Origin: a candidate division Kazan bacterium RIFCSPHIGHO2_01_FULL_44_14 | GTDB lineage: Bacteria; Patescibacteriota; Kazan-3B-28 | Direction of reading: 5' to 3' | NCBI GenBank assembly: GCA_001771185.1 | Contig: METB01000001.1 | Location: 186,631 to 250,630 of the forward strand | DNA length: 64,000 nucleotides | Shown here: piece after piece, positions 2,939 to 50,346 of the stretch | Numbering within the stretch: position 1 is the first letter of the stretch | Layout of the letters: every line of letters begins with the position of its first letter | The notes under the pieces: generated by a model | The model's input: only the letters and a program-made list of their open reading frames with translations | Told to the model about the DNA's origin: nothing | Databases searched by the model: none | Made by a program: the position numbers and the translations under genes

Positions 2939-4954
2939 TTAATTTATTTGTATAATCTCGACCCCAAACTTCAAGTCAGTTTGCAATTTATCGCTAAATA
3001 ATTGTTTAGTTTTGACCATGTCGTTCTCGGCTAACCCCAGCGCCGGAGATAATTTCAAAATACTAGTTAAAGTCGTATTGTTGGCGCCTGGTTGTTTAAA
3101 AACATTTAATTGGTAATAATCAGTCACTTTTCCAGGCAATCTGTAATTTAATTCCACTGTTTTACTCTCTCCAGGATTGGTAGTTAACCAAAACGCCAAC
3201 ACGGTTTTACCGTTCTCGTCGTATTGTTCTACAGTAGTTTCATAATCCTGTCCGACAACTGAAACTTTCACCGTGTCTTTGGGCAAGTAAACCCGAACAT
3301 AATCTTTGTTAGGTCCGTCCGGAAAAATATAACTACCAGTATGAGTGTATTTAAGCTGTAGGGCAACATTCACATCACCAGTCAAATTAACATTGGCAGT
3401 ATGATGGATTTCTTCCTGAACATTTTGACTGCTTTTGCGTCCGCCCAGGTTAGCCCGAACTACTCCTAAAAAGTCCCCTCCCGATGTTGTTTCCGGCAAA
3501 ACCCCAGCCACGCTAAGTCGGTTCATTACTGGTTCAAGTTTAGGATTACGCAAATAAATCAACACATCTTTTTGCTGTAGCCGAGACATTAGGGCTAGGT
3601 TAATCTGTTTTAAGACCGCTCCATTGGCAGTCAGTAGTCGCCCTAATAAAATTGGCGCAAATTCGTTTAATACTTCTTTGGGATTTTCCTTTTGATTATC
3701 AATCAACTCAATTTGGGCTTGGGTTGCCGACACAAAATTGTCAGCAGTTAAGGTAAGCTCCTTGTTTTCTAAATAGACCGGACCCAGGACGGTTAAAATA
3801 TCTTTAATCACTTCGGGATTAATGGCGATAACCCCATCGGCCGTTCCCCCGCCGGCTTGCTCGTACAACTTTTGGAAAGTTTGAGCGGAAGTTGGGAAAT
3901 CGGCATACCAATTAGCATCCCGAGTGCCAAATGAAGTAGTAATCGCTTCTAAGGGTTTGGGTAAGGTCAGACTTGAATTAGGATTTTGCCCATCAATTCG
4001 TTGGGTCATATCAACCAAAACACTTTTTAATTTACCCTTATAAACTTCCACTAACATATAACTGCCCACAAAACCGCCGGTAGCCCGCAGTTCATTATTA
4101 TTTTGATTCAATATCAAATATTGGCGCGGATTATTGAAACCCAAGGCGTCTGGTAACTCTTTGGCTAAAGTTCCCAGGGTCATCACAGTGGACTGAAGAG
4201 TAGCAGTTTTAATTTGCGCTTCACTCAACGCTGTGGCATAAGTCGAGTCAACCGTTTTAGGATTAATCGACGACAACAAAGTATTGGCTTTGGTTACTTG
4301 GGCTAACGCTCGATCCAGGTTATTAGAACTTTGGCCCATCAAACCAACGATTTGTCCAGCCAAATCTTGCGCCTGGTTGCCGCTGGTGCTCAAACCATTA
4401 AAGTACTGCCACAGCGGTGTCATGGTATCAATTAGAGTGATTCCGGCTTGGGCTAAACTTAAACCACTATCAATTAATTTTTGCCCAGCGACAATTTGTG
4501 AACCGTCACTCGCCAGACCCGACATATATAAATTAGTTTGGCCTAAAGCCAAGAGTTCGGTTTGAGCAGTGGCAAACAGATTCTCCGCCGCCACAAAGTT
4601 GTCCCGAGCCCCAGAGATATCTTGGGCCAAAACCGCTGCCGCAGCGGCTTCTAACTTACCAATTCCCCGATTGGCCAAATCGGTAATTTGGCCTTTCACA
4701 TTATTGGCTGATTGATACACCAGTCCGCCACCGATATAAAGCAGCAGAGCCAGCATAACAATCAGGACTAATTTTAACCCAGCCCAAAGCCAAACCACGG
4801 CAGTTGATTGAACCGTTGCTTCGCTAAAAGCCATATTCAAAGTAGACGAAGGGTTAGTAAAACGAGATGAAACCGGGATAACGACAGAGTTACGAGTAAG
4901 CGGCCGACTTGATTTCGGTTTTACATAATAATACTTTTTAGTGTCTGTACTCAT
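2939..4954 (-). CDS. DUF4012-like membrane-anchored protein, a family associated with polysaccharide loci.
   Basis: N-terminal TM helix, then a long extracytoplasmic region with an ELRATGGFVGSY motif recalled from DUF4012. It heads a glycosyltransferase cluster. The family assignment is from memory. Confidence 0.45.
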   Translation of the reverse strand: MSTDTKKYYYVKPKSSRPLTRNSVVIPVSSRFTNPSSTLNMAFSEATVQSTAVVWLWAGLKLVLIVMLALLLYIGGGLVYQSANNVKGQITDLANRGIGKLEAAAAAVLAQDISGARDNFVAAENLFATAQTELLALGQTNLYMSGLASDGSQIVAGQKLIDSGLSLAQAGITLIDTMTPLWQYFNGLSTSGNQAQDLAGQIVGLMGQSSNNLDRALAQVTKANTLLSSINPKTVDSTYATALSEAQIKTATLQSTVMTLGTLAKELPDALGFNNPRQYLILNQNNNELRATGGFVGSYMLVEVYKGKLKSVLVDMTQRIDGQNPNSSLTLPKPLEAITTSFGTRDANWYADFPTSAQTFQKLYEQAGGGTADGVIAINPEVIKDILTVLGPVYLENKELTLTADNFVSATQAQIELIDNQKENPKEVLNEFAPILLGRLLTANGAVLKQINLALMSRLQQKDVLIYLRNPKLEPVMNRLSVAGVLPETTSGGDFLGVVRANLGGRKSSQNVQEEIHHTANVNLTGDVNVALQLKYTHTGSYIFPDGPNKDYVRVYLPKDTVKVSVVGQDYETTVEQYDENGKTVLAFWLTTNPGESKTVELNYRLPGKVTDYYQLNVFKQPGANNTTLTSILKLSPALGLAENDMVKTKQLFSDKLQTDLKFGVEIIQIN

Positions 4955-9013: not shown

Positions 9014-9089
9014 TGGTGGGCGGTAGAGGATTCGAACCTCTGACATTCACAACGTCAATGTGACGCTCTACCAACTGAGCTAACCGCCC
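9014..9089 (-). tRNA. tRNA-Val (anticodon GAC).
   Basis: Reverse complement is GGGCGGTTAGCTCAGTTGGTAGAGCGTCACATTGACGTTGTGAATGTCAGAGGTTCGAATCCTCTACCGCCCACCA. The cloverleaf closes, the anticodon loop is TTGACGT, and CCA is encoded. Confidence 0.9.
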
Positions 9090-9103
9090 AAACAGAGGTT
9101 ATT

Positions 9104-9745
9104 CTACTGGGATTTGGTCAATACTTCAAGAATCCTAGCCCGAACCGTTTCCAGAGCGTCTTGGAGGTCGGCTTCACTACCGTTATTATTAATAATCAAA
9201 TCGGCCTCATCTTTGCCTGGCTCGACATACAGTTCGTACATCGGTTGAGCCGACGACAAATATTGATTTAAGGATTCTTGGAAACTCCGATCCCGTTCTC
9301 CGACATCCCGCCCTAGCCGACGGGCTAACCGGATGTCCGAATCAACATCGACAAAGATAGTTAAATCGAGCAGGTCACAAACCCGTTTATCGGTCAGAAT
9401 CAGAATGCCTTCAACAATAATTACCGGTTTGGACTCAACCTGCGCCATCACTGGTTTGCGCGTATGGGTCCCGAAGTCGTACTGGGGCATCTCGATCGGC
9501 TTTCCGGCCTTGAGGTCTAATAGATGACGATAAAACAATTCCTCGTCCAGGGATTTTGGTTCGTCATAATTGAGATCTTTGCGACGCTCAAGCGGAACAT
9601 CGCTGCGGTCCTTGTAATAGTTGTCGTGGGAGAAGATTAAAATCTTGGTCGGATTGGCCTTTTGAAGTTCCTTGGCAATATAGGTTTTACCAGAACCAGT
9701 CCCCCCAGCGATACCGATAAAAAACGGTTGGGGAATATTTTCCAT
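9104..9745 (-). CDS. udk: Uridine kinase.
   Basis: P-loop FFIGIAGGTGSGKTYIAKEL and the downstream DNYYKD...IIVEGILIL...FVDVDSDIRLARRLGRD pattern of the Udk/PRK family. Start taken at the internal ATG (MENIPQPF) rather than the longer ORF. Confidence 0.8.
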   Translation of the reverse strand: MENIPQPFFIGIAGGTGSGKTYIAKELQKANPTKILIFSHDNYYKDRSDVPLERRKDLNYDEPKSLDEELFYRHLLDLKAGKPIEMPQYDFGTHTRKPVMAQVESKPVIIVEGILILTDKRVCDLLDLTIFVDVDSDIRLARRLGRDVGERDRSFQESLNQYLSSAQPMYELYVEPGKDEADLIINNNGSEADLQDALETVRARILEVLTKSQ

Positions 9746-9845
9746 GTGTCTATTATGCCATACTTTCCTCTTTACAGAGGAGTTGAACCGGCCTACACTG
9801 GGTCTGCTCTTTGCTAGCGTGTAGTCGCCCCCCACTTTCTGGGCT

Positions 9846-10154
9846 ATGTACTATGTGTACATCTTACAAAGTAGACAGGATGGCAAGTTGTATATTGGCT
9901 ATACAGCCGATTTGCGGTCGCGATTCAGAGAACACAACCAAGGTCTCTCGCAAGCTACTCGCCATCGTCAGCCATTTGATCTCGTCTACTATGAGGCCTT
10001 TAAGGCCAAGAAGGATGCCGTGGTTAGAGAACGGATGATTAAGCAATACAAGCAAGGTTATACCAATCTCAAAAAACGCATCTCAGCAAGCCTTGAACCT
10101 AGAAAGTGGGGGGAGGAAAGTCCGGACACCATTCTAAATCAGGAAAGTCGCTAA
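9846..10154 (+). CDS. Small GIY-YIG nuclease-domain protein (URI/YhbQ-like). Its C-terminal about 20 codons overlap the 5' part of RNase P RNA.
   Basis: MYYVYILQSRQDGKLYIGYTADLRSRFREHN. One of four paralogues in the window. Confidence 0.7.
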   Translation: MYYVYILQSRQDGKLYIGYTADLRSRFREHNQGLSQATRHRQPFDLVYYEAFKAKKDAVVRERMIKQYKQGYTNLKKRISASLEPRKWGEESPDTILNQESR

Positions 10155-10167
10155 CGGCGACCGTTGC

Positions 10168-10297
10168 CAGTGCTTCGCACTGGGAAATTTATCCAATCTC
10201 TCCAATCTGACCAATCTTACCAATCTAAGAAATTAAATTGGCGAAGGTTGGAATAAATTGGATTAAATTGGTTAGATTGACCAATGCGGAGCGTTGG
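10168..10297. repeat. Hairpin element copy 1 inside rnpB (CAGTGCTTCGCACTGG, an AT-rich imperfect palindrome, CCAATGCGGAGCGTTGG).
   Basis: Same architecture and partly identical sequence to 10331-10445 and to the 23S inserts at 42974-43105 and 43741-43893. Confidence 0.7.
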
Positions 10298-10330
10298 TGA
10301 TAGGGAAAGTGCCACAGAGACAATACTAAC

Positions 10331-10445
10331 CAGTGCTTCGCACTGGAATCATCAAATCTCAAAATCCAAATCCCAAACAGATTATTGTTTGATATTTGGT
10401 GCTTGGGACTTGGTATTTCCAACGCGGAGCGTTGGTGAAAGGTGA
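10331..10445. repeat. Hairpin element copy 2 inside rnpB.
   Basis: CAGTGCTTCGCACTGG, an AT-rich palindrome, CCAACGCGGAGCGTTGG; a tandem duplicate of copy 1 with a different interior. Confidence 0.7.
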
Positions 10446-10977
10446 AAAGCAACAGGGTGTTGAAGTGTTGAATGGCGGGTTAATCCCGCCAATCGGCTCC
10501 AAAGCTACCTGTCGGACTCCGTCGTGAGACGGATGTTCTGGCAAACCCTTTCCGGTGCAAGTTGGGCTGGACCGTGTCCGTCAATCGCTTTGGTTTAGAC
10601 GAGGCGGACAAGGACCCTAACGCTTGAGATTAATGGCAACATTAACCCCAGATAGATGACTACTTCACCCACCAAAGTTTTGCTTTCGCAAAATTTAGGC
10701 GGGCAAGACAGAATCCGGCTTACGGCTGGCAAAGAGCATACAAATCAACCACCCTCTGGGGGTGGTTTTTGGTCTAAGACAATTCAGTTTATACTATGGA
10801 TGACTTAATCTTGCTAAAATAACCAAGTTATGCCCCGTAGAGAAATTTAAAATACTCTTGGCCCCAATGTTTTCCTTTGGGCCAAACCATGGGGCAAATC
10901 TCGTCAGTAAATCGTTCTAATATCTGTTAGTGGGCCAATAGCAGAAAAGAAAATATTTCTAAATTCTTCTACGGGAT

Positions 10978-16737: not shown

Positions 16738-17006
16738 ACCAAATCTTTCCATTTAGGGTTACTTGCTTCTATTAGATTAATTTTCCACTGCCGGTGCCAA
16801 TTTTTAAGCTGTTTCTCTCTTTGAATCGCTTTGGCAATGTCAGAGTATTCTTCCAAATATACCAAATGATACAGACGATATCTTTGAGGAAAAGATAGGG
16901 TGGTCCTGGAATGTAAATCGAGTCAATTTTCAATTCCGCTGGTCACTCCAATATACAGTGTGCCACGGGGTTTATTGGTAAGAATATAAACAAATCCTAC
17001 TTTCAT
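16713..17006 (-). pseudogene. GIY-YIG nuclease gene interrupted by an in-frame TGA at codon 28 (rc TCA at 16923-16925). The N-terminal 27 aa and C-terminal 69 aa are in the same frame.
   Basis: Minus-strand translation gives MKVGFVYILTNKPRGTLYIGVTSGIEN*LDLHSRTTLSFPQRYRLYHLVYLEEYSDIAKAIQREKQLKNWHRQWKINLIEASNPKWKDLVRDAETPR*. Both halves align to the intact paralogue at 17620-17904. Confidence 0.6.
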
Positions 17007-17491: not shown

Positions 17492-17610
17492 TTGTCATCC
17501 CGAGCATTACCCTCTTGTCATCCCGAACATTACCTTCTTGTCATTCCGAGTGTTACCCTCTTGTCATCCCGAGTGTTACCCTCTTGTCATCCCGAGCGTA
17601 GTCGAGGGAT
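17492..17610. repeat. Tandem repeat of about 4.5 x 23 bp (TTGTCATCCCGAGCATTACCCTC).
   Basis: Units read directly at 17492, 17515, 17538, 17561 and 17584. The last unit merges into the inverted repeat that flanks the GIY-YIG gene. Confidence 0.85.
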
Positions 17611-17619
17611 CTATTATCT

Positions 17620-17904
17620 TTATTCCCATTGCATTGATATATCCTCCCATCCTGGATTCATCCGTTGAATCAAGGTCTCTTTCTTACTACGACGCCAACC
17701 TTTAAACTGCTTTTCGCGTGCAATAGCAGATTCCACATCCAAACAAGATTCAAAGTAAACTAATTGTTGAGTTTTGTATTTTGACGAGAATCCAGGGATC
17801 AATTCGTGTTCATGTTCGTACGCTCGTCTGTTTAAATCATTGGTAACACCGACATACAACACTCCTGAACGACTGGCCATAATATAGACATAGTATTCTT
17901 TCAT
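17620..17904 (-). CDS. Small GIY-YIG nuclease-domain protein, flanked by imperfect inverted repeats.
   Basis: MKEYYVYIMASRSGVLYVGVTNDLNRRAYEHE. Flanks are GTCATCCCGAGCGTAGTCGAGGGATC (17587-17612) and rc CTTGTCATTCTGAGCGAAGCGTTAGCGGAGTCG (17915-17955). Confidence 0.75.
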   Translation of the reverse strand: MKEYYVYIMASRSGVLYVGVTNDLNRRAYEHEHELIPGFSSKYKTQQLVYFESCLDVESAIAREKQFKGWRRSKKETLIQRMNPGWEDISMQWE

Positions 17905-40915: not shown

Positions 40916-41659
40916 CATGATAATCCATTATTACTAATGGCATAGACTATATCTTCATCCTTTCCGCCCACCGGCGGAGGAGGAGGTGGCGTGTGATTCT
41001 GCGCTACGGCAAAATCTCATCAGTTGTTCTTGCTTTGAACAATTGAATCAGTCGTTACGGGGAACAAGATGATGTGTTTGCAGAAATTGTTTGACCGTTG
41101 CTTGCGTGGTCGTGCGTTTCTTTGAGTAATTATACTTTGCGGTTTCATCCACTAGAGTCGCTCTAGCAAGCAACTCTTGGGGAGTGATTCTCTGGTATGA
41201 AGAACCAATGCCCTTAACGCATAAATCAATAACCTTCTGCGCTAGGACTTGTTTCAGTTGCAGATATGGCAACAATTTGGTTAAAACTTCGTAGACCGGC
41301 TGATACCCAACAATCGTGTATTCAGCCATCTGATCATTACGAACACGAACATATCCATGTTTCAGGTGGCCCTTAAGCCATTCGAGAAAGTGTTTTCTGT
41401 CTTCTTTTTGATAAAAGACAATGCTGACTCGAATCTGATAGCCGTGGACATATCCACTCCGTTTCACCAGTTGCGCCATAATGCAACCATCTCCATCCAA
41501 AAATCCTGCAATGTAAGCAAGTAATGTTTCTGCCATTATCTTGATCTTCCCTCGGGGTTACCCTTTTTCCGTTCGGTAGGAAAGTAGGGTTTCTCCGATA
41601 CAGCCACATTTATTGTACCGCATTTCTGCGGTAGAACGCAATGTGATTTACGTTCTGAA
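40916..41659 (-). mobile_element. Group I-type intron (744 nt) in 23S domain V, inserted between ...GGGTTCAGAACGT and CGTGAGACAGTTCGG (the E. coli ~2586-2593 region), encoding a LAGLIDADG homing endonuclease.
   Basis: Flanking exon sequences align to E. coli ...UAGAACGU|CGUGAGACAGUUCGG; the 5' exon ends in U, the insert ends in G, and it contains the 41048-41536 ORF. Confidence 0.75.
41048..41536 (-). CDS. LAGLIDADG homing endonuclease (single-motif, I-CreI-like size).
   Basis: MAETLLAYIAGFLDGDGCI... motif; 162 aa; located wholly inside the 23S intron. Confidence 0.85.
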   Translation of the reverse strand: MAETLLAYIAGFLDGDGCIMAQLVKRSGYVHGYQIRVSIVFYQKEDRKHFLEWLKGHLKHGYVRVRNDQMAEYTIVGYQPVYEVLTKLLPYLQLKQVLAQKVIDLCVKGIGSSYQRITPQELLARATLVDETAKYNYSKKRTTTQATVKQFLQTHHLVPRND

Positions 41660-41672
41660 CCCAGCTCGCGTG

Positions 41673-41704
<32 letters not shown>

Positions 41705-41718
41705 AACCTGCTCCAGCT

Positions 41719-41749
<31 letters not shown>

Positions 41750-41781
41750 AAACCGCTTCGTCGATATGGACTCTTGGAAGC

Positions 41782-41813
<32 letters not shown>

Positions 41814-42291
41814 TCGTTGAGCTTCGGCGCACCCATGTGCAACCGTCGGATCACTATATCCTGCTTTCGCATCTGCTTGACTTGTAGGTCTCGCAGTTAA
41901 GCTCCCATATACTATTGCGCTATCGTCCCGATTTCCATCCGGGACTAGGGAACCTTTGAACGCCTCCGTTACTTTTTAGGAGGCAACCGCCCCAGTTAAA
42001 CTACCCACCAAACGCTGTCCTCCTGCCAGATAATGGCTAGGAGTTAGAATTAAAAATGCATCAGGGTGGTATTTCACCGTTGACTCGCTGATGGCTAGCG
42101 CCACCAGGTCATTGTCTCCCACCTATCCTACACAAATAAATCTCTAACCCAACGCCAGGTTGTAGTAAAGCTCCACGGGGTCTTTTTGTCTTGCTGCGGA
42201 TAGCCGGCATCTTCACCGGCAATGTAGTTTCGCCGAGTCCCTCTTTGAGACAGTCATCAGACCGTTACGCTATTCGTGCGGGTCGGAACTT

Positions 42292-42578
42292 CATGTTAAC
42301 TCTATTTTTCAATAGAGATCAGACTATACCTTCATCTTGTCGCAAACCGTAGGAGATCGTTTTCGCGATATCCATAGTTTGTTTGCTAGACAAGAGCTGA
42401 CGTGTTGTTCCGCTTTACAGCAGAACCTCGCCTTTCGGCTCAGTCGTTACGGGTCACCTTAATTATAAGGTGTTCCCTCGGTATTAGCATATCCCCATAG
42501 CATAAGGATTTAGCTTTCACCGATATGAGTCAGTTTGCTTTGTAGTGTTACCACTACATTCGGGCAAGTTTCCCACCT
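42292..42578 (-). mobile_element. ORF-less intron-like insertion (287 nt) in 23S at the position equivalent to E. coli ~1931 (GUCGGGU | AAGUUCCGACC).
   Basis: Exon sequence is continuous with E. coli after removing the insert; the insert ends ...GTTAACATG (3' G) and follows an exon U. Confidence 0.6.
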
Positions 42579-42598
42579 ACCCGACAAGGAATTTCGCT

Positions 42599-42787
42599 CT
42601 TAGATTCCTTACACTAAGGACCATGTCTTCACCCCGATTAGTCGGGGGCGTGGTGTATGGCCTCTTGTAGCCACGTATGGACTTTCTTTATGTTGCCATA
42701 AAGTAAGGTAGCATTTTGCGAGTTATCGTATCGCTTATAACAGTCCCAGTCCTTCTCGATTTAACAATTTTAATTGTTCAACCGAGA
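42599..42787 (-). mobile_element. Short intron-like insertion (189 nt) in 23S at the position equivalent to E. coli ~1917 (GGUCCUAAGGU | AGCGAAAUUCC), 20 nt upstream of the previous one.
   Basis: The exon 20-mer AGCGAAATTCCTTGTCGGGT separates the two inserts. The insert contains an exon-mimic GGTCCTTAGTGTAAGGAATCTAAG near its 3' end. It is short for a group I intron, so its class is uncertain. Confidence 0.5.
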
Positions 42788-42823
<36 letters not shown>

Positions 42824-42973
42824 AGGGCTTAGTGTCAGAGCTTCGCCTTGCGGCTAACCCCTCTACGTGACCTTCTGGCACCGGGCAAGCGTCAGTCCCT
42901 ATACTTCCTCTTTCGAGTTAGCAGAGACCTGTGTTTTTGCTAAACAGTCGCCTGATGTCTTTAGCTGCGGCCC

Positions 42974-43105
42974 ACCTCACGCTCCGCGTGAGGAAATCTA
43001 ACCAATTTATTCCAATTTATTCCAACCTTCGCCAATTTATTTTCATAGATTGGTAAGATTGGTGAGATTGTTTAGATTGACTAAATTTACTCGTGCGAAG
43101 CACGA
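42974..43105. repeat. Hairpin intervening-sequence element in 23S helix 63, same family as the rnpB inserts.
   Basis: On the rRNA strand: CGTGCTTCGCACG, then an AT-rich segment (CCAATCTTACCAATCTA..TAAATTGGCGAAGGTTGGAATAAATTGGA) about 90% identical to 10200-10290, then CCTCACGCGGAGCGTGAGG. Replaces the E. coli helix-63 variable region. Confidence 0.75.
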
Positions 43106-43740
43106 TGTGGGCAGTCCTTATTCCGAAGTTACGGACGCTATTTTGCCGAGTTCCTTAAAGAGGGTTCTCTCGTGCGCCTGAGGCTACTCGCCCTATCCAC
43201 CTGTGTCGGTTTAGGTACGGATGCTTAATATTCTCGTTAGAGGTTTTTCTGGTCAAATTAGATCAGCCAAGTCGTATTGTCCCGAAGAACTCAACTTCCA
43301 TTCGTAGCTCACGGTTGCTCAATAAATTGAACAGTCCCCCGGATTTGCCAAAGGGACCCCATTAACTACTTAGACCAAGAAACCTATCTTGGCTCGGCCT
43401 ACCAACTTGCGTCGCCCCATCACTAGACGTGCAGACCGGTAAAGTCAGCATCCAGCCTACCTTTCGGCAGGTTGATCATCTGATCTACCAATTTGCTTGT
43501 CTTGGGCGAATATCAAGCAGTACAGGAATATTAACCTGTTGTCCATCGCCTACGCCTTGCGGCCTCGGCTTAGGACCGACTAACCCTGGGACGAAAACCG
43601 TTACCCAGGAAACCTCGGATAAATCGGCGTCAAGGTTTTTCACCTTGATCTCGCTACTCGTGCCAACATTCTCACTTCTGCGCGCTCCACCCAACCTCAC
43701 AGTTAAGCTTCACTGCTGCGCAGAACGCTCCCCTACCACA

Positions 43741-43893
43741 CCACTGCTACGCAGTGGAAGCACTAAATCCTAATTACTAAATTCTAAACAAGCCCCAAAT
43801 CCTAATGTCCCAAAAAATGTTTGGAAAATTGAATCATTGGAATTTGTTTAGAGTTTATGATTTCGAATTTCGTATTTCCATTGCGGAGCAATG
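43741..43893. repeat. Hairpin intervening-sequence element in 23S helix 45.
   Basis: CCACTGCTACGCAGTGG, an AT-rich palindrome, CCATTGCGGAGCAATGG. Inserted between ...GATACCGAAGATGCGGATG and TGTGGTAGGGGAGCGTTCTG (E. coli ~1164-1185). Confidence 0.75.
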
Positions 43894-43979
43894 GCATCCG
43901 CATCTTCGGTATCTAGCTTAGCCCCGTTACATTTTCGGCGCAGACACACATCGACCAGTGAGCTATTACGCTATCTTTA

Positions 43980-44010
<31 letters not shown>

Positions 44011-44518
44011 TTGTTAATGTGTCTCCACTTCCTTTCACACTTAGCTAGATTTAGGGACCTTAGATGGCGGTTTGGGCTGTTTCCCTTTCGACATACGACG
44101 CTTAGCCGCCGTTTTCTGACTCCCATGCTTTAACCAGACAGTATTCGGAGTTTAATTGGATGCGGTACGGTAAACCGCCCGAATCCATTCAGTAGCTCTA
44201 CCACTGCTGGGAACGCTATGAGGCTATACCTAAATATATTTCGGGGAGAACCAGCTATCTCCGGGTTCGATTGGAATTTCTCCGCTAACCACAGCTCATC
44301 ACCCCACTTTTCAACGTAGGTGTGTGCGGCCCTCCACTGCTTCTTAGGGCAGCTTCAGCCTGGCCATAGTTAGGTCACCCGGTTTCGGGTCTAATCCCTG
44401 CTACTTCAGTCGCGCTATTCGCACTTGCTTTCGCTTCGGATACGGATTAAAAATCCTTATCCTTGCAACAGAAATTAACTCGTTGGCTCATTCTACAAAA
44501 GGCACGCCGTCACCCCAT

Positions 44519-44676
44519 CAGCACACAATGCTGGATGAAATAACCAAATTCCAAATCACAAATCACAAACAAACTCCAAATTTAAATTTCTAAACAAAAA
44601 AAACAGAAAAATTATTATCTGGTGCTCATTTGATGATTGATTATTGGCGTTTGGTTACTCCAGCACTCTGTGCTGG
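44519..44676. repeat. Hairpin intervening-sequence element in 23S helix 25.
   Basis: AGCACAGAGTGCT, an AT-rich low-complexity palindrome, AGCATTGTGTGCT. Inserted just 5' of GGCGTGCCTTTTGTA (E. coli ~530-545). Confidence 0.7.
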
Positions 44677-44739
44677 CGGGGCTCCGACTTTTAATCGGGC
44701 ATTCGGTTTCAGGTACTATTTCACTCCCCTCACAGGGGG

Positions 44740-44779
<40 letters not shown>

Positions 44780-46062
44780 GAGAAATGATATTTAGCCTTA
44801 CCAGATGGTCCTGGCACATTCCGGCAGGATTTCACGGGTCCCACCGTACTTAAGAAATAATGTTCAGAGTGATTTTCTTTTCGCTTACGGGACTTTCACC
44901 CACTATGGTTGCCCTTTCCAGAGACCTTCAGCTAAGAAAATCATTGTTAACTCCTAATTTGGTCTACCGCCCAAAAATACATCACCCTTATAACCCTCTC
45001 CTACACAACGCCAGTAGGCTTTAACATGTAAGAAAGTTTAGACTCTTCCCTTTTCGCTCGCCACTACTTAGGGAATAACATTTGTTCTATTTTCCTCGTG
45101 CTAATAAGATGTTTCAGTTCACACGGTTCCCTCCTCATTGTCTATGTATTCAACAATGGGTTCCCGCCAATTCAAAGCTTGTATATCGCTACTACCCATT
45201 CGACTAATCAACTAATTATTTATCGATTGGAATGTTTGATACACCAGCCCTAAATTGGCGGGAGGATTGCTCCATTCGGACATCCCCGGATCACAGGTTG
45301 TTTGACACCTACCCGAGGCTTATCGCAGTCTACTACGTCCTTCTTCGGTCATTTCTCCCAAGGCATCCACCGCATGCCCTTGAGTAACTTACGCTCGTTT
45401 CTCCAAGAGACGAGTGCCTTGCACTTTAAATCGACGATTCAAGAAAGCGATTTTGCTTTCTTTATCTTTCTTTTCTTTCAGTGCATGTTGTCAACGAACT
45501 AAAAAATTCAAAGAATAACTGGAAGGGGCTAAAAAAATGATAATCCCTCGGCGCTGCTCGGGGTAAATTTTACTGCGTAAAAATTAAAAAGCAGGGCGTT
45601 CATCCCTGCTTGAAGTCAACAGTTAACGGATGAACTTAGATTTGAAGCGAATTTTGTAAATATAAAATAGCCAAGTCGTCTAGGCCAGAAGTTAAATTGG
45701 ATATTAGTTTCCTCAAAAGCTTATAAATAGTGTTATATGTGGTCTCACCAAAGTGGCAGAAGCACTAGTTGCAACGATACTATATATACCAGTTGCCCGC
45801 AAGAGATATTTTGCCATTCTGACCTGGAATAGTCAACCCCGTAGAGAATTTTGGACAGGCGCCTCTTGCCGGGTGCCTCCTGATACCAATCATCCAAAAT
45901 CTTCTACAGGGTCAAGGGGGGCCTGTCAATGGGTTATAATCAGGTTATAACTCCTATTCGTCCCGCCTGCCCCGTGCGAATGAAATGAGTCCTTCGGGGT
46001 TAGAAATCACCTACCGGGATAATCGAGGAACGGATAGAAGTAATTCATAAATATACGCTAGG

Positions 46063-49900: not shown

Positions 49901-50146
49901 TTAGGTTAACAAGTGTTTATTGGCAAATGCTTTCCCAGAACCAGCTTTTAGATAGGTTTCGAACTTTTCAGCTTGGGCTTTTGTCTTGAATGCTATGTAG
50001 CAAATCATGTCCCACGGTTTGAACTTGCTAGTATGTGGCGATTGACCAGCGTTGTGTGCAACAAACCGAGATTTTAAATCGGATGTACTACCAATATATG
50101 TTTGCATTTTATTCTTATGACTGCGAAGCAGATAAACGTAATACAT
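49901..50146 (-). CDS. Small GIY-YIG nuclease-domain protein.
   Basis: MYYVYLLRSHKNKMQTYIGSTSDLKSRFVAHN; start at the internal ATG; lies next to tRNA-Ala. Confidence 0.7.
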   Translation of the reverse strand: MYYVYLLRSHKNKMQTYIGSTSDLKSRFVAHNAGQSPHTSKFKPWDMICYIAFKTKAQAEKFETYLKAGSGKAFANKHLLT

Positions 50147-50272: not shown

Positions 50273-50346
50273 TGGTGGACCTAGGCAGAATTGAACTGCC
50301 GTCTCAGCAATGCGAATGCTGCGTACTACCGCTGTACTATAGGCCC
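50273..50346 (-). tRNA. tRNA-Ala (anticodon CGC) with the G3:U70 identity pair.
   Basis: Reverse complement is GGGCCTATAGTACAGCGGTAGTACGCAGCATTCGCATTGCTGAGACGGCAGTTCAATTCTGCCTAGGTCCACCA. Confidence 0.85.

Follow-up and report, generated by a model that had tools for sequence, protein, structure and literature searches.

The rnpB gene of a candidate division Kazan bacterium, lying in the 64-kb stretch of DNA analysed here (the window), is likely to form one transcription unit in which a promoter is followed by a class A RNase P RNA of about 932 nt, with inserts at three helix tips, and by a terminator. The catalytic core of this RNA is ordinary, and the tips of three peripheral helices hold lineage-specific inserts. 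The first insert would be a 270-nt cassette in the P3 loop, in which an 8-bp inverted repeat encloses a single-domain GIY-YIG gene of 84 codons, and the second and third would be rods of 131 and 106 nt substituting the tips of P9 and P12. Judged from the sequences, the inserts are most likely mobile, intervening-sequence-like elements expressed from the rnpB promoter. A nuclease gene inside an rnpB hairpin is known from the window and from seven other rnpB loci, and no report of a protein gene or of an intervening-sequence-type insertion inside a bacterial rnpB was found in the literature.

A sequence-only reading of this region had claimed an RNase P RNA and had proposed a covariance search as the check. 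The model RNaseP_bact_a (RF00010) matched positions 10083-10733 of the + strand with 111.8 bits (E = 2e-33), above the gathering score of 100 bits that was used as the membership cut-off for the RNase P call; the relatives scored 113.7-187.8 bits. The two P4 blocks, which had been placed about 600 nt apart, were both present at a distance of 595 nt and aligned to the model at high posterior probability. Their ability to pair, named in advance as one of two points on which the claim could fail, was confirmed by a canonical pairing of 7 bp, A10118-A10119-G10120 and C10122-G10125 with C10715-T10721, in which the conserved U10121 is bulged. The core of that claim was upheld: hairpin elements inserted into the RNase P RNA enlarge it, and a terminator ends it. 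The terminator-like hairpin occupies 10747-10767, followed by a run of T as far as about 10772, and does not lie at the position of about 10790 given previously; a comparable hairpin with a T run occurs in L086, L154, L091, L084, L197 and L210. The sampled rnpB genes had a median length of 445 nt, against about 932 nt for the Kazan gene, and the RNase P RNA of E. coli has 377 nt.

Table 1. Features of the Kazan rnpB region (positions in the window; paired strands given under remarks)
Feature	Position	Strand	Remarks
Promoter-like site of rnpB	9771-9799	+	-35 TTTACA, 17-nt spacer, -10 TACACT
rnpB, full-length class A RNase P RNA	9806-10737	+	P1 start to P1 end, ~932 nt; predicted 5' end
P1 5' strand	9806-9818	+	pairs with 10725-10737, 13/13; inverted repeat
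P2 5' strand	9819-9826	+	pairs with 10658-10665, 7/8; core GTAGTC/GACTAC
P3, whole	9828-9843 with 10098-10113	+	16/16 pairs
Native P3 5' strand CCCCCCAC	9828-9835	+	pairs with GTGGGGGG at 10106-10113
GIY-YIG cassette in P3 loop	9836-10105	+	270 nt, bracketed by 8-bp inverted repeats
GIY-YIG ORF	9846-10154	+	102 codons; nested wholly in rnpB, in P3 loop
P4 5' strand block GAGGAAAGTCCGG	10113-10125	+	within quoted block GGAGGAAAGTCCGGAC, 10112-10127
P8 hairpin GTCGC-TAACG-GCGAC	10147-10161	+	loop contains stop codon of GIY-YIG ORF
Hairpin-ended, short-repeat-rich rod, P9 tip	10167-10297	+	131 nt, takes the place of the tip; end stems 10167-10183 with 10281-10297
Conserved P10/P11 and J11/12 core AGGGAAAGTGCCACAGAGACAAT	10302-10324	+	between the two rods
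Hairpin-ended, short-repeat-rich rod, P12	10330-10435	+	106 nt, takes the place of the P12 tip; end stems 10330-10346 with 10419-10435
Extra hairpin at P19 position	10671-10705	+	between P2 3' strand and P4 3' strand
P4 3' strand block ACAGAATCCGGCTTA	10708-10722	+	within quoted block ACAGAATCCGGCTTAC, 10708-10723
Intrinsic-terminator-like hairpin and T run	10747-10772	+	9 bp (hairpin 10747-10767), begins 10 nt past P1

The RNA had been described as about 700 nt long with a start near 10080, and this part of the description had to be abandoned, because the 5' strands of P1, P2 and P3 were located at 9806-9843. The Rfam match covers only the 3' 651 nt of the gene. With P1, P2 and P3, the helices of the RNaseP_bact_a model close the RNA around the GIY-YIG ORF, and a minimum-free-energy fold of rnpB recovered P1 and P3 (z = -9.1). 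P1 covaries among the relatives, compensatory changes in P2 were seen in L109, L150, L210, L197 and L123, and the covariation of both helices spans relatives that carry the ORF. In locus L169, which is about 89-90% identical to the window RNA and has the same promoter, P1 and P2, the P3 helix is uninterrupted; its P1-P3 region is nearly identical to window positions 9806-9835, and the Rfam match of L169 reaches 130.7 bits with clean pairs. Since P1-P3 close around the ORF and L169 shares the promoter, P1 and P2 with a plain P3, a length of about 932 nt was assigned to rnpB, with its 5' end predicted at about 9806, upstream of the ORF. The start of transcription predicted from the promoter-like site is at about 9805-9807, and the -35 and -10 boxes lie at equal distance 5' of P1 in L169, L109, L150, L086 and L210.

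The location of Rfam model position 1 at 10083, together with the listing of the ORF as a separate gene by gene callers, could be explained by an independent GIY-YIG gene upstream, the 3' end of which overlaps some 50-70 nt of an RNase P RNA of about 700 nt starting near 10080. However, the Rfam alignment places model positions 1-42 on 10083-10112 in a forced manner, with many non-canonical pairs and gaps, and the same forced 5' end was obtained in L210, where the true P1-P3 again lie on either side of the ORF. The partners of P1-P3 at 9806-9843 correspond by homology to the uninterrupted P1-P3 region in L169 and L109, and the covariation of P1 and P2 across ORF-bearing relatives and the conserved promoter 5' of 9806 likewise contradict an independent gene, which is hardly tenable. 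A chimeric assembly was ruled out, since independent assemblies at ENA and JGI contain identical stretches of 7.8 kb and 5.4 kb and the identical ThrRS is found in an NCBI genome record. A cyanobacterial source, which the heptamer-like repeats had suggested, was dismissed on a 100% match of ThrRS to candidate division Kazan bacterium RIFCSPHIGHO2_01_FULL_44_14. A search of contigs with ThrRS returned only relatives of at most 65% identity, mostly from Bacteroidota, and no rnpB near any of them.

An Rfam score barely over the cut-off (111.8 against 100) and three or four large insertions could also mean that this copy is a pseudogene broken by insertions, with RNase P function supplied from elsewhere in a genome of which the 64-kb window was seen. 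Yet the long-range helices are all intact, with 13/13 pairs in P1 and 16/16 in P3, no change was seen in the universal blocks of P4, J11/12 and J12/13, and the differences between the window and L169 preserve pairing. The promoter and the terminator have been kept, the inserts sit at helix tips only and never in the core, and the design is repeated in seven other loci with intact cores. Moreover, rnpB was present in each circularised CPR genome checked by Lui et al. 2021 (PMC8172020), although a lowered score threshold was needed in 10 of 35. A pseudogene is thus very improbable.

The GIY-YIG ORF had been thought to clip the 5' edge of the RNase P RNA. The ORF itself proved real, as Pfam GIY-YIG (PF01541) matched residues 1-69 with 62.7 bits against a cut-off of 22.6, but it lies wholly inside rnpB. 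Residues Y5, Y16, G18, R26, H30, E62 and K66 are invariant in nested and free-standing homologues, which keep the catalytic residues at 35-61% identity. The conserved part comprises residues 1-84 and ends at nt 10097, where the 3' strand of P3 starts. A check of C-terminal conservation, as had been suggested, showed that residues 85-102 (tail EPRKWGEESPDTILNQESR) have no counterpart in any homologue, the homologues being 83-90 aa long; these residues are read-through into the 3' strand of P3, P4 and P5-P8, as far as the TAA stop codon at 10152-10154 in the P8 loop. Of the two options offered earlier, a shorter protein or a true overlap of genes, neither applied in the form given, as the ORF occupies the P3 loop and is conserved to residue 84. 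In the relatives the stop codon falls within the 3' inverted repeat, and the Kazan equivalent, TAG at 10100-10102, is shifted from the reading frame by 1 nt. One protein (P0121) is 99% identical and has another C-terminus; its 707-nt scaffold, which matches the window to 10078 and diverges beyond, is probably mis-joined and is uninformative.

The nested protein consists of a single UPF0213-type GIY-YIG domain of 84 aa and has neither a DNA-binding nor any further domain. Among solved structures, 1ZG2 and 1YWL, both of UPF0213 proteins, and SLX1 are nearest to it. Against TIGR01453, the family of group I intron endonucleases, it scored 21.7 bits, below the cut-off of 56 and over residues 4-40 only. 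Because of the missing DNA-binding domain and the score below the TIGR01453 cut-off, the label of a homing enzyme is used here as an analogy. Among 79 rnpB genes no second protein family was found nested in rnpB, and the other ORFs of at least 50 codons were either read-through of the core, with a recurring RESATETIL peptide, or antisense noise.

The layout of the cassette is compact. It consists of TTTCTGGG (9836-9843), the dinucleotide CT, the ATG at 9846, the conserved ORF to 10097 and CCTAGAAA (10098-10105), with 254 nt between the arms of the inverted repeat, which lengthens P3 to 16 bp. As the repeats extend P3 coaxially, the pairing scheme of the ribozyme is left intact. The ATG is 2 nt from the 16-bp stem, which leaves no room for a promoter, and the ORF would therefore be transcribed only within the rnpB transcript. 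It has no Shine-Dalgarno sequence, and the neighbouring genes of the window are also without one. No further copy of the P3 stem sequence of the window was found in the 64 kb. Of the 270 nt, 252 are conserved coding sequence and 16 belong to the inverted repeat, with 18/270 nt in all outside the conserved ORF. Since the 23S rRNA of the window contains a group I intron according to Rfam, and such introns classically carry GIY-YIG enzymes, the P3 insert might be taken for a self-splicing intron of group I or group II with a homing endonuclease gene, like the 23S rRNA intron of this organism. This was rejected, because the coding sequence and the repeats leave no ribozyme sequence in the insert. 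No Rfam intron model matched 9836-10105 and no ribozyme core was recognised there, the nested protein scores under the TIGR01453 cut-off, and according to Tsurumaki et al. 2024 (PMC11270868), GIY-YIG proteins of CPR rRNA genes are found in non-intron insertions only, never in introns. An intron at this site is scarcely conceivable.

Comparison of relatives showed a patchy distribution of the cassette. The empty site of L169 has the form CCCCTCGC-ATG-GCGGGGGG, a plain 8-bp P3 with a 3-nt loop, and the sequence of this type of site is GTAGTCGCCCCTCGCATGGCGGGGGGAGGAAAG. ORF cassettes are nested in P3 in the window, L150, L197, L123, L115 and L210 and in P12 in L084 and L146, giving seven metagenomic loci outside the window, and all of them are on the strand of the RNA. 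Two pairs of filled and empty sites were found among close relatives: the window and L169 (89% RNA identity, P3), and L084 and L086 (83%, P12). The nested proteins group by insertion site, as far as pairwise identities can show, with 61% identity between the window and L210, 55% between L150 and L197 and 56% between L084 and L146, against only 50-61% for the host RNAs. Two copies are decayed, L123 by a premature stop codon and L084 by an in-frame TGA. Close homologues of the cassette lie 5' of tRNA genes, bracketed both by inverted repeats and by a duplicated tRNA 5' end; the direct repeats that flank these tRNA-linked cassettes are 7-11 nt long and are copies of the tRNA 5' end. Of the marks of MITE-like or transposon-like elements, terminal inverted repeats were seen, and no target-site duplication was found at the rnpB cassettes and rods. 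In L197, L123, L210, L084 and L146, the stems on either side of the ORF are repeated at other places of that RNA as hairpins that lack an ORF, and all copies of the cassette and rod that were seen sit inside stable-RNA genes. It is moderately well supported that the cassette would be a selfish, site-specific mobile gene resembling a homing element, because it is present or absent in close relatives, its proteins group by site, its sites are P3, P12 and tRNA 5' ends, and two copies are decayed.

The two rods correspond to the two tandem copies of a hairpin element that had been described previously. Two copies do exist; they are not in tandem, since 32 nt of the RNase P core at its most conserved (TGATAGGGAAAGTGCCACAGAGACAATACTAA) lie between them and they belong to different helices, P9 and P12. 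Nor do they make up the whole excess between the P4 blocks, as had been proposed: they account for 237 nt, and the remainder is an extended P13, typical of the lineage, and the hairpin before the 3' strand of P4, a segment that differs in length among relatives. The rods form 40-50 pairs. At the 5' end the two rods share an identical 17 nt, and at the 3' end they are nearly the same; these 17-mers are palindromic, being complementary both to themselves and to each other. The motif of the ends, CCANNGC-NNN-GCNNTGG, has 6 occurrences in the window, where chance would give 0.08, and in 855 kb of fetched loci all 17 of 17 matches lie inside rnpB. The architecture of the P12 rod was found in 8 other loci with the same start, 29 nt from the start of the core block; L109, L150 and L086 are without rods and have an ordinary short P9 with a 4-nt loop there. 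Rods of the same family also sit at helices 25 and 45 of the Kazan 23S rRNA, which are the two classical intervening-sequence sites.

The ends of the rods can be drawn either as two local hairpins or as a continuous 17-bp stem, and both folds are backed by compensatory changes. The continuous stem is favoured because the 3-nt centres of the paired end hairpins are complementary to each other, which was the case in 11 of 12 elements, with seven distinct centre pairs. Whether the ends were conserved by selection of terminal repeats at the level of DNA or by selection of RNA structure cannot be separated on these sequences, and the constant start nucleotide of the P12 rods would also fit vertical descent of an elaborated helix without mobility.

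The inserts might also be retained functional expansions, the rods being structural in the mature RNA and the RNase P RNA doubling as the mRNA of a nuclease that benefits the host. The P12 rods start at the same nucleotide in 9 lineages, the rods change by compensation, and in 10 of 11 the RNA sense gives a more stable fold than the antisense. Short tandem repeats are found in P12 of heterocyst-forming cyanobacteria as well, and the catalytic residues of the ORF are preserved at 35-61% identity. In contrast, the closest relatives lack the ORF and two of its copies are in decay, the interior of the window's P9 rod shares only about 50% identity with the other copies, with the match mainly at the ends, and rods of the same type occur at two 23S sites where other bacteria excise such inserts. 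Retained expansions are accordingly considered unlikely, and mobile, intervening-sequence-like inserts are preferred.

Intervening sequences in 23S rRNA are known from Salmonella, Leptospira and Coxiella, some with an ORF of the S23p family, and are excised by RNase III without religation. The Kazan inserts resemble them in their long complementary stems at helix tips, sporadic occurrence and occasional ORF, and the rod family is common to helices 25 and 45 of the Kazan 23S rRNA and to P9 and P12 of rnpB. In P3, P9 and P12 alike the insert is not an intron, lies at the tip of a conserved helix and has a long complementary stem, and the cassette, like intervening sequences, is sporadic among close relatives. 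There are also differences: the Kazan ORF encodes a nuclease and not a protein of the S23p type, and the ribozyme host would end in three or four pieces if the putative excision takes place. It is weakly supported that the rods and the cassette stem may behave like rRNA intervening sequences. RNase III would then cut the inserts out without religation, which would leave a fragmented, base-paired RNase P RNA and a nearly leaderless nuclease mRNA; alternatively, the inserts would be kept in the mature RNA as helix extensions.

The cassette shares the GIY-YIG motif, site specificity, patchiness and decaying copies with the homing endonucleases of group I introns (I-TevI type, TIGR01453) and with free-standing phage homing genes of the Seg type, and differs from them in having no intron, no DNA-binding domain and only 84 aa. 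For the rods, a parallel exists in heterocyst-forming cyanobacteria, in which Vioque reportedly described, in 1997, short tandemly repeated repetitive (STRR) sequences in P12 of the RNase P RNA. In both cases short tandem repeats pair into a long helix and P12 tolerates lengthening; the Kazan rods differ in lineage, in repeat units, in their palindromic 17-mer ends and in being present also in P9 and in 23S rRNA. PMC2858038 cites that work, as its reference 108, in stating that P12 is dispensable in cyanobacteria.

Large helix extensions and low Rfam scores have been described for the RNase P RNAs of CPR bacteria (Lui et al. 2021, PMC8172020). The Kazan RNA has the same catalytic core as these class A RNAs (P1-P4, J11/12, J12/13 and the P15 region) and a score above the gathering threshold, and differs in its length of about 932 nt, in the protein gene in P3 and in the intervening-sequence-type rods on P9 and P12; PMC8172020 makes no mention of ORFs within rnpB. 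In Tsurumaki et al. 2024 (PMC11270868), short insertions at the classical intervening-sequence sites of CPR rRNA are considered probable substrates of RNase III, and Coxiella is named in connection with RNase III cleavage without ligation. The GIY-YIG insertions of CPR rRNA described in that paper, and in Brown et al. 2015 as cited there, are like the Kazan cassette non-intron, at the top of a stem-loop and coding for GIY-YIG proteins. They differ in the host gene, since the Kazan cassette sits in the RNase P ribozyme and its homologues in relatives also in 5' leaders of tRNA genes. The anatomy of a bracketing inverted repeat, an ATG adjacent to the stem and a stop codon in the 3' repeat was not found in the part of PMC11270868 considered here.

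The Kazan inserts may, as a tentative and rather doubtful generalisation, belong to a previously undescribed class of mobile elements in CPR bacteria, made up of intron-less GIY-YIG genes in stem-forming repeats and of ORF-less hairpin derivatives, which would reside at the hairpin tips or 5' ends of stable RNAs (P3, P9, P12 and the P19 position of rnpB, helices 25 and 45 of 23S rRNA, and tRNA 5' ends) and use the strong promoters of their host genes, with an RNase P RNA that is fragmented or is a bifunctional ribozyme and mRNA. If confirmed, the finding would mean that covariance models truncate such rnpB genes, as they do in the window and L210, and that gene callers in turn annotate an overlap that does not exist and add a false tail of 18 residues to the protein. 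It would also reveal a natural tolerance of P3, P9 and P12 for inserts of 100-270 nt, possibly in the form of a fragmented RNase P RNA. An 84-aa nuclease with a short inverted repeat would offer a compact system in which to study intron-less movement, and the reach of selfish elements in the structural RNA genes of CPR bacteria would extend beyond rRNA to RNase P RNA and tRNA leaders.

The RNase P RNA gene (rnpB) was matched by the Rfam bacterial class A model at 10083-10733 (+) with 111.8 bits (E 2e-33) against a gathering score of 100, confirming the identity of the RNA. Both P4 blocks quoted in the sequence-only reading were found, at 10112-10127 and 10708-10723 (spacing 595 nt), and they are able to form a canonical P4 with a bulged U. 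Other parts of that interpretation, namely the extent of the gene, its relation to the GIY-YIG ORF and the arrangement of two internal elements, had to be revised. A gene start near 10080 was not upheld, as the Rfam alignment forces model positions 1-42 (P1-P3) onto 10083-10112 with many non-canonical pairs, and the true 5' strands of P1-P3 lie upstream of the ORF. The ORF is thus inside the gene, rather than overlapping the start of the RNA with its tail. A terminator does close the RNA, nearer to P1 than the proposed position of about 10790. Coordinates are collected in the table.

Features of the rnpB locus, the 23S rRNA gene and GIY-YIG paralogues in the window
Feature	Position	Strand	Remarks
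Promoter of rnpB, sigma-70-like	-35 at 9771, -10 ending at 9799	+	predicted start ~9806
P1	9806-9818 with 10725-10737	+	13/13 pairs
P2	9819-9826 with 10658-10665	+	7/8 pairs
P3	9828-9843 with 10098-10113	+	16/16 pairs
P3 cassette	9836-10105	+	270 nt; order TTTCTGGG, CT, ATG, ORF ending in GAA, CCTAGAAA
P9 rod	10167-10297	+	replaces P9 tip (alignment with L109, L150, L086)
P12 rod	10330-10435	+	replaces P12 (same alignment)
Terminator hairpin	10747-10767	+	3' of rnpB
23S rod	43741-43894	-	loop of helix 45; Rfam model positions ~1213-1218
23S rod, variant of same design	~44500-44677	-	helix 25; model positions 583/584
GIY-YIG paralogue	49946-50146	-	~130 nt downstream of tRNA 50276-50346
GIY-YIG paralogue	17620-17904	-	23-nt tandem units directly downstream
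GIY-YIG paralogue	16797-16994	-	in-frame stop; probably a pseudogene

At the level of sequence comparison, the metagenomic relative L169 is decisive for both the gene extent and the insertion. L169 shares promoter, P1 and P2 with the window, at about 90% identity across the upstream kinase gene and rnpB. Its P3 is a plain CCCCTCGC-ATG-GCGGGGGG running straight into GAGGAAAGTCC, and its clean, uninterrupted 5' end was aligned by Rfam (130.7 bits). Given the empty P3 between the same flanks, the window P3 loop therefore holds a 270-nt insertion, an inverted repeat around the GIY-YIG ORF. Covariation in P1, P2 and P3 was seen across the other ORF-bearing relatives; P2 is GTAGTC/GACTAC in the window, GTAATC/GATTAC in L150 and GACGATCG/TGATCGTC in L197. 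The minimum-energy fold of 9806-10737 (-367 kcal/mol, z = -9.1 vs shuffles) recovered P1, P3 and other helices. The locus consists of one promoter and one ribozyme gene, with the ThrRS gene just downstream; its product matches ThrRS of candidate division Kazan bacterium RIFCSPHIGHO2_01_FULL_44_14 (CPR/Patescibacteria) at 100% identity. Independent assemblies from ENA and JGI contain the identical locus, which rules out an assembly artefact. Relative to ThrRS, the block comprising rnpB, uridine kinase (PRK) and tRNA (window 9017-10737) has opposite orientations in window/L169 and in L086/L084; in the latter two, rnpB is on the strand opposite ThrRS (L086 1888-3155, L084 214-1884).

At about 932 nt the window rnpB is the third longest among 79 related genes with a definable P1 (median 445 nt), and both longer genes also carry a P3 ORF. 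The cassette, the P9 and P12 rods (131 and 106 nt) and a hairpin of ~35 nt at the P19 position sum to ~540 nt; the remaining ~390 nt is usual for class A. The three large inserts sit at helix tips and the core pairing of the ribozyme is preserved. The two rods, which had been taken for tandem copies, occupy separate helices on either side of the conserved P10/P11 and J11/12 core.

Both window rods begin with CCAGTGC-TTC-GCACTGG and end with CCAAYGC-GGA-GCGTTGG, enclosing an imperfect hairpin of short repeats, A/C-rich in the 5' arm and G/T-rich in the 3' arm. The same P12 architecture with an identical start nucleotide is present in eight relatives (L169, L158, L189, L147, L201, L173, L184, L100). 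Each 17-mer end is self-complementary; because the 3-nt centres of the two ends are also mutually complementary in 11/12 elements, with seven different centre pairs, a continuous 17-bp basal stem is supported, and folding predicts the same. The RNA-sense strand folded more stably than its complement in 10/11 rods. The P9 and P12 rods of L169 share 92% identity, indicating that the P9 copy arose from the P12 copy; in the window P9 rod the interior is replaced by CCAATCT repeats and the match remains mainly at the ends. All end-motif matches in 855 kb of other loci (17/17) fell inside rnpB. The window holds four in rnpB and two in the 23S rRNA gene (0.08 expected), which spans 3819 nt (41576-45394, -) against a 2925-position model. 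Helices 25 and 45, where the 23S rods lie, are the classical pair of sites for intervening sequences excised by RNase III, a point that PMC11270868 makes for CPR. The 23S gene further contains a group I intron at 42300-42588 (-; Rfam 54.7 bits, cut-off 50). The ORF 3' end at 10061-10085 (TACCAATCTCAAAAAACGCATCTCA) resembles rod repeat units at 10218-10232 (P9) and 10355-10375 (P12), with 76-87% identity over 15-21 nt, which may be chance.

The Pfam GIY-YIG domain covers residues 1-69 of the nested protein (62.7 bits). Aligned with its relatives, both nested and free-standing, the protein has Y5, Y16, G18, R26, H30, E62 and K66 as invariant catalytic positions, and conservation stops at about residue 84, whose codon (10095-10097) lies directly 5' of the stem's 3' strand; database homologues have 83-90 aa. 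The stop codon is inside the 3' inverted repeat in L150, L197, L115 and L210. The equivalent TAG in the window (10100-10102) is one nucleotide out of frame, and the ORF therefore continues through P3, P4 and P5-P8 to a TAA in the P8 loop (10152-10154). The resulting C-terminal tail of 18 residues showed no conservation. The closest solved structures are UPF0213 proteins (1ZG2, 1YWL) and also SLX1; the protein fell below the cut-off of the NCBIfam group I intron endonuclease family and no DNA-binding domain was found in it. Only 1-2 nt separate the 5' repeat from the ATG in L150, L210 and the window (~21 nt in L197), leaving no space for a separate cassette promoter, and on this layout the ORF is transcribable only within the rnpB transcript.

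Metagenomes were scanned with the core block AGGGAAAGTGCCACAGAGACAAT, followed by tblastn for ORF homologues on the loci found. Homologous ORFs within rnpB were always on the strand of the RNA. Copies nested in P3 were found in L150, L197, L123 (decayed, premature stop) and L115 (partial, contig end), and in P12 in L084 (Kazan bacterium 49_10) and L146. A protein-based look-up added L210 as a further P3 case, in which Rfam again misplaces the 5' end. The L084 ORF (~795-541) has an in-frame TGA where homologues have W/F; either a nonsense mutation arose recently or the codon is recoded. Large inserts without a GIY-YIG match were noted in the rnpB genes of L119 (546 nt from the 5' P4 strand to the core), L175, L182 and L202 (the latter two 340-370 nt past J12/13). 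In L210 a different 60-nt hairpin (GTTGGAGTTTAGAGA...TCTAATCTCCAACTTC) occurs twice, just 3' of the 5' P4 strand (~2800-2860) and just 5' of the 3' P4 strand (~3205-3265).

The P3 cassette is missing from the closest RNA relatives of the window (L169, 89% identity; L109, 69%; L084, 65%), and its remaining hosts have RNAs merely 43-56% identical to that of the window. Likewise, the P12 cassette is in L084 and not in L086 (RNA 83% identical). Protein clusters follow the insertion site rather than the host and take in tRNA-linked copies (window-L210 61%, L150-L197 55%, L084-L146 56%, window-P0123 61%). We infer that the cassette is mobile, these being pairwise identities and not a phylogenetic test. 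The ORF-flanking stem is repeated without the ORF in the P3, P9, P12 or P19 position of the same RNA in L197, L123, L210, L084 and L146, linking ORF-bearing and ORF-less hairpins; L210 shares the stem CCCCCATC..AATTTTG / CAAAATT..GGTGGGGG among P3, P9 and P12. No second copy of the window P3 stem was found within the 64 kb.

Close nuclease homologues (54-61% identity) at L208 2400-2841, L211 2380-2823 and L212 2400-2847 each precede a tRNA gene on the same strand (Ala, Ala and Val) by 17-33 nt. Each is bracketed by a ~16-bp inverted repeat (CCCCTCACC...GGTGAGG) together with a direct repeat of the first 7-11 nt of the tRNA; the outer of these repeats is similar to P3 stems of rnpB. The arrangement suggests that the cassette inserted into the 5' portion of the tRNA gene and that the tRNA was regenerated; if so, the ORF would lie within the tRNA leader that RNase P removes. 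The window also has three further GIY-YIG paralogues (33-47% identity). A 23-nt unit (CTCGGGATGACAAGAGGGTAACA) is repeated in tandem about five times at ~17505-17610 (-), 3' of the 17620-17904 gene, and related motifs (GTCATTCTGAGCGAAGCG; GTCATCCCGAAC) precede that gene and the paralogue at 16797-16994.

The cassette is probably a selfish, site-specific element exploiting the strong rnpB promoter. More tentatively, its long stems and those of the rods might be RNase III substrates, as such stems are in 23S rRNA, in which case RNase P RNA, once matured, would be in pieces held by P1-P3, P9-P11 and P12, with the excised P3 loop acting as a nearly leaderless mRNA. Alternatively, the inserts may be kept in the mature RNA as helix extensions. 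In cyanobacterial RNase P RNA, P12 is reported to contain short tandem repeats (Vioque 1997). PMC2858038 cites that study, as its reference 108, for the dispensability of P12 in cyanobacteria. RNase P RNAs of CPR have large helix extensions, as does the window rnpB, and low Rfam scores (PMC8172020). In CPR rRNA genes, GIY-YIG proteins occur in non-intron insertions (PMC11270868), whereas the window has its GIY-YIG ORF in rnpB P3. No report of a gene or intervening sequence inside a bacterial rnpB was found in the literature searches on RNase P RNA. Helix extensions and GIY-YIG insertions in rRNA are already known from CPR, and the gene within a bacterial rnpB is apparently new.
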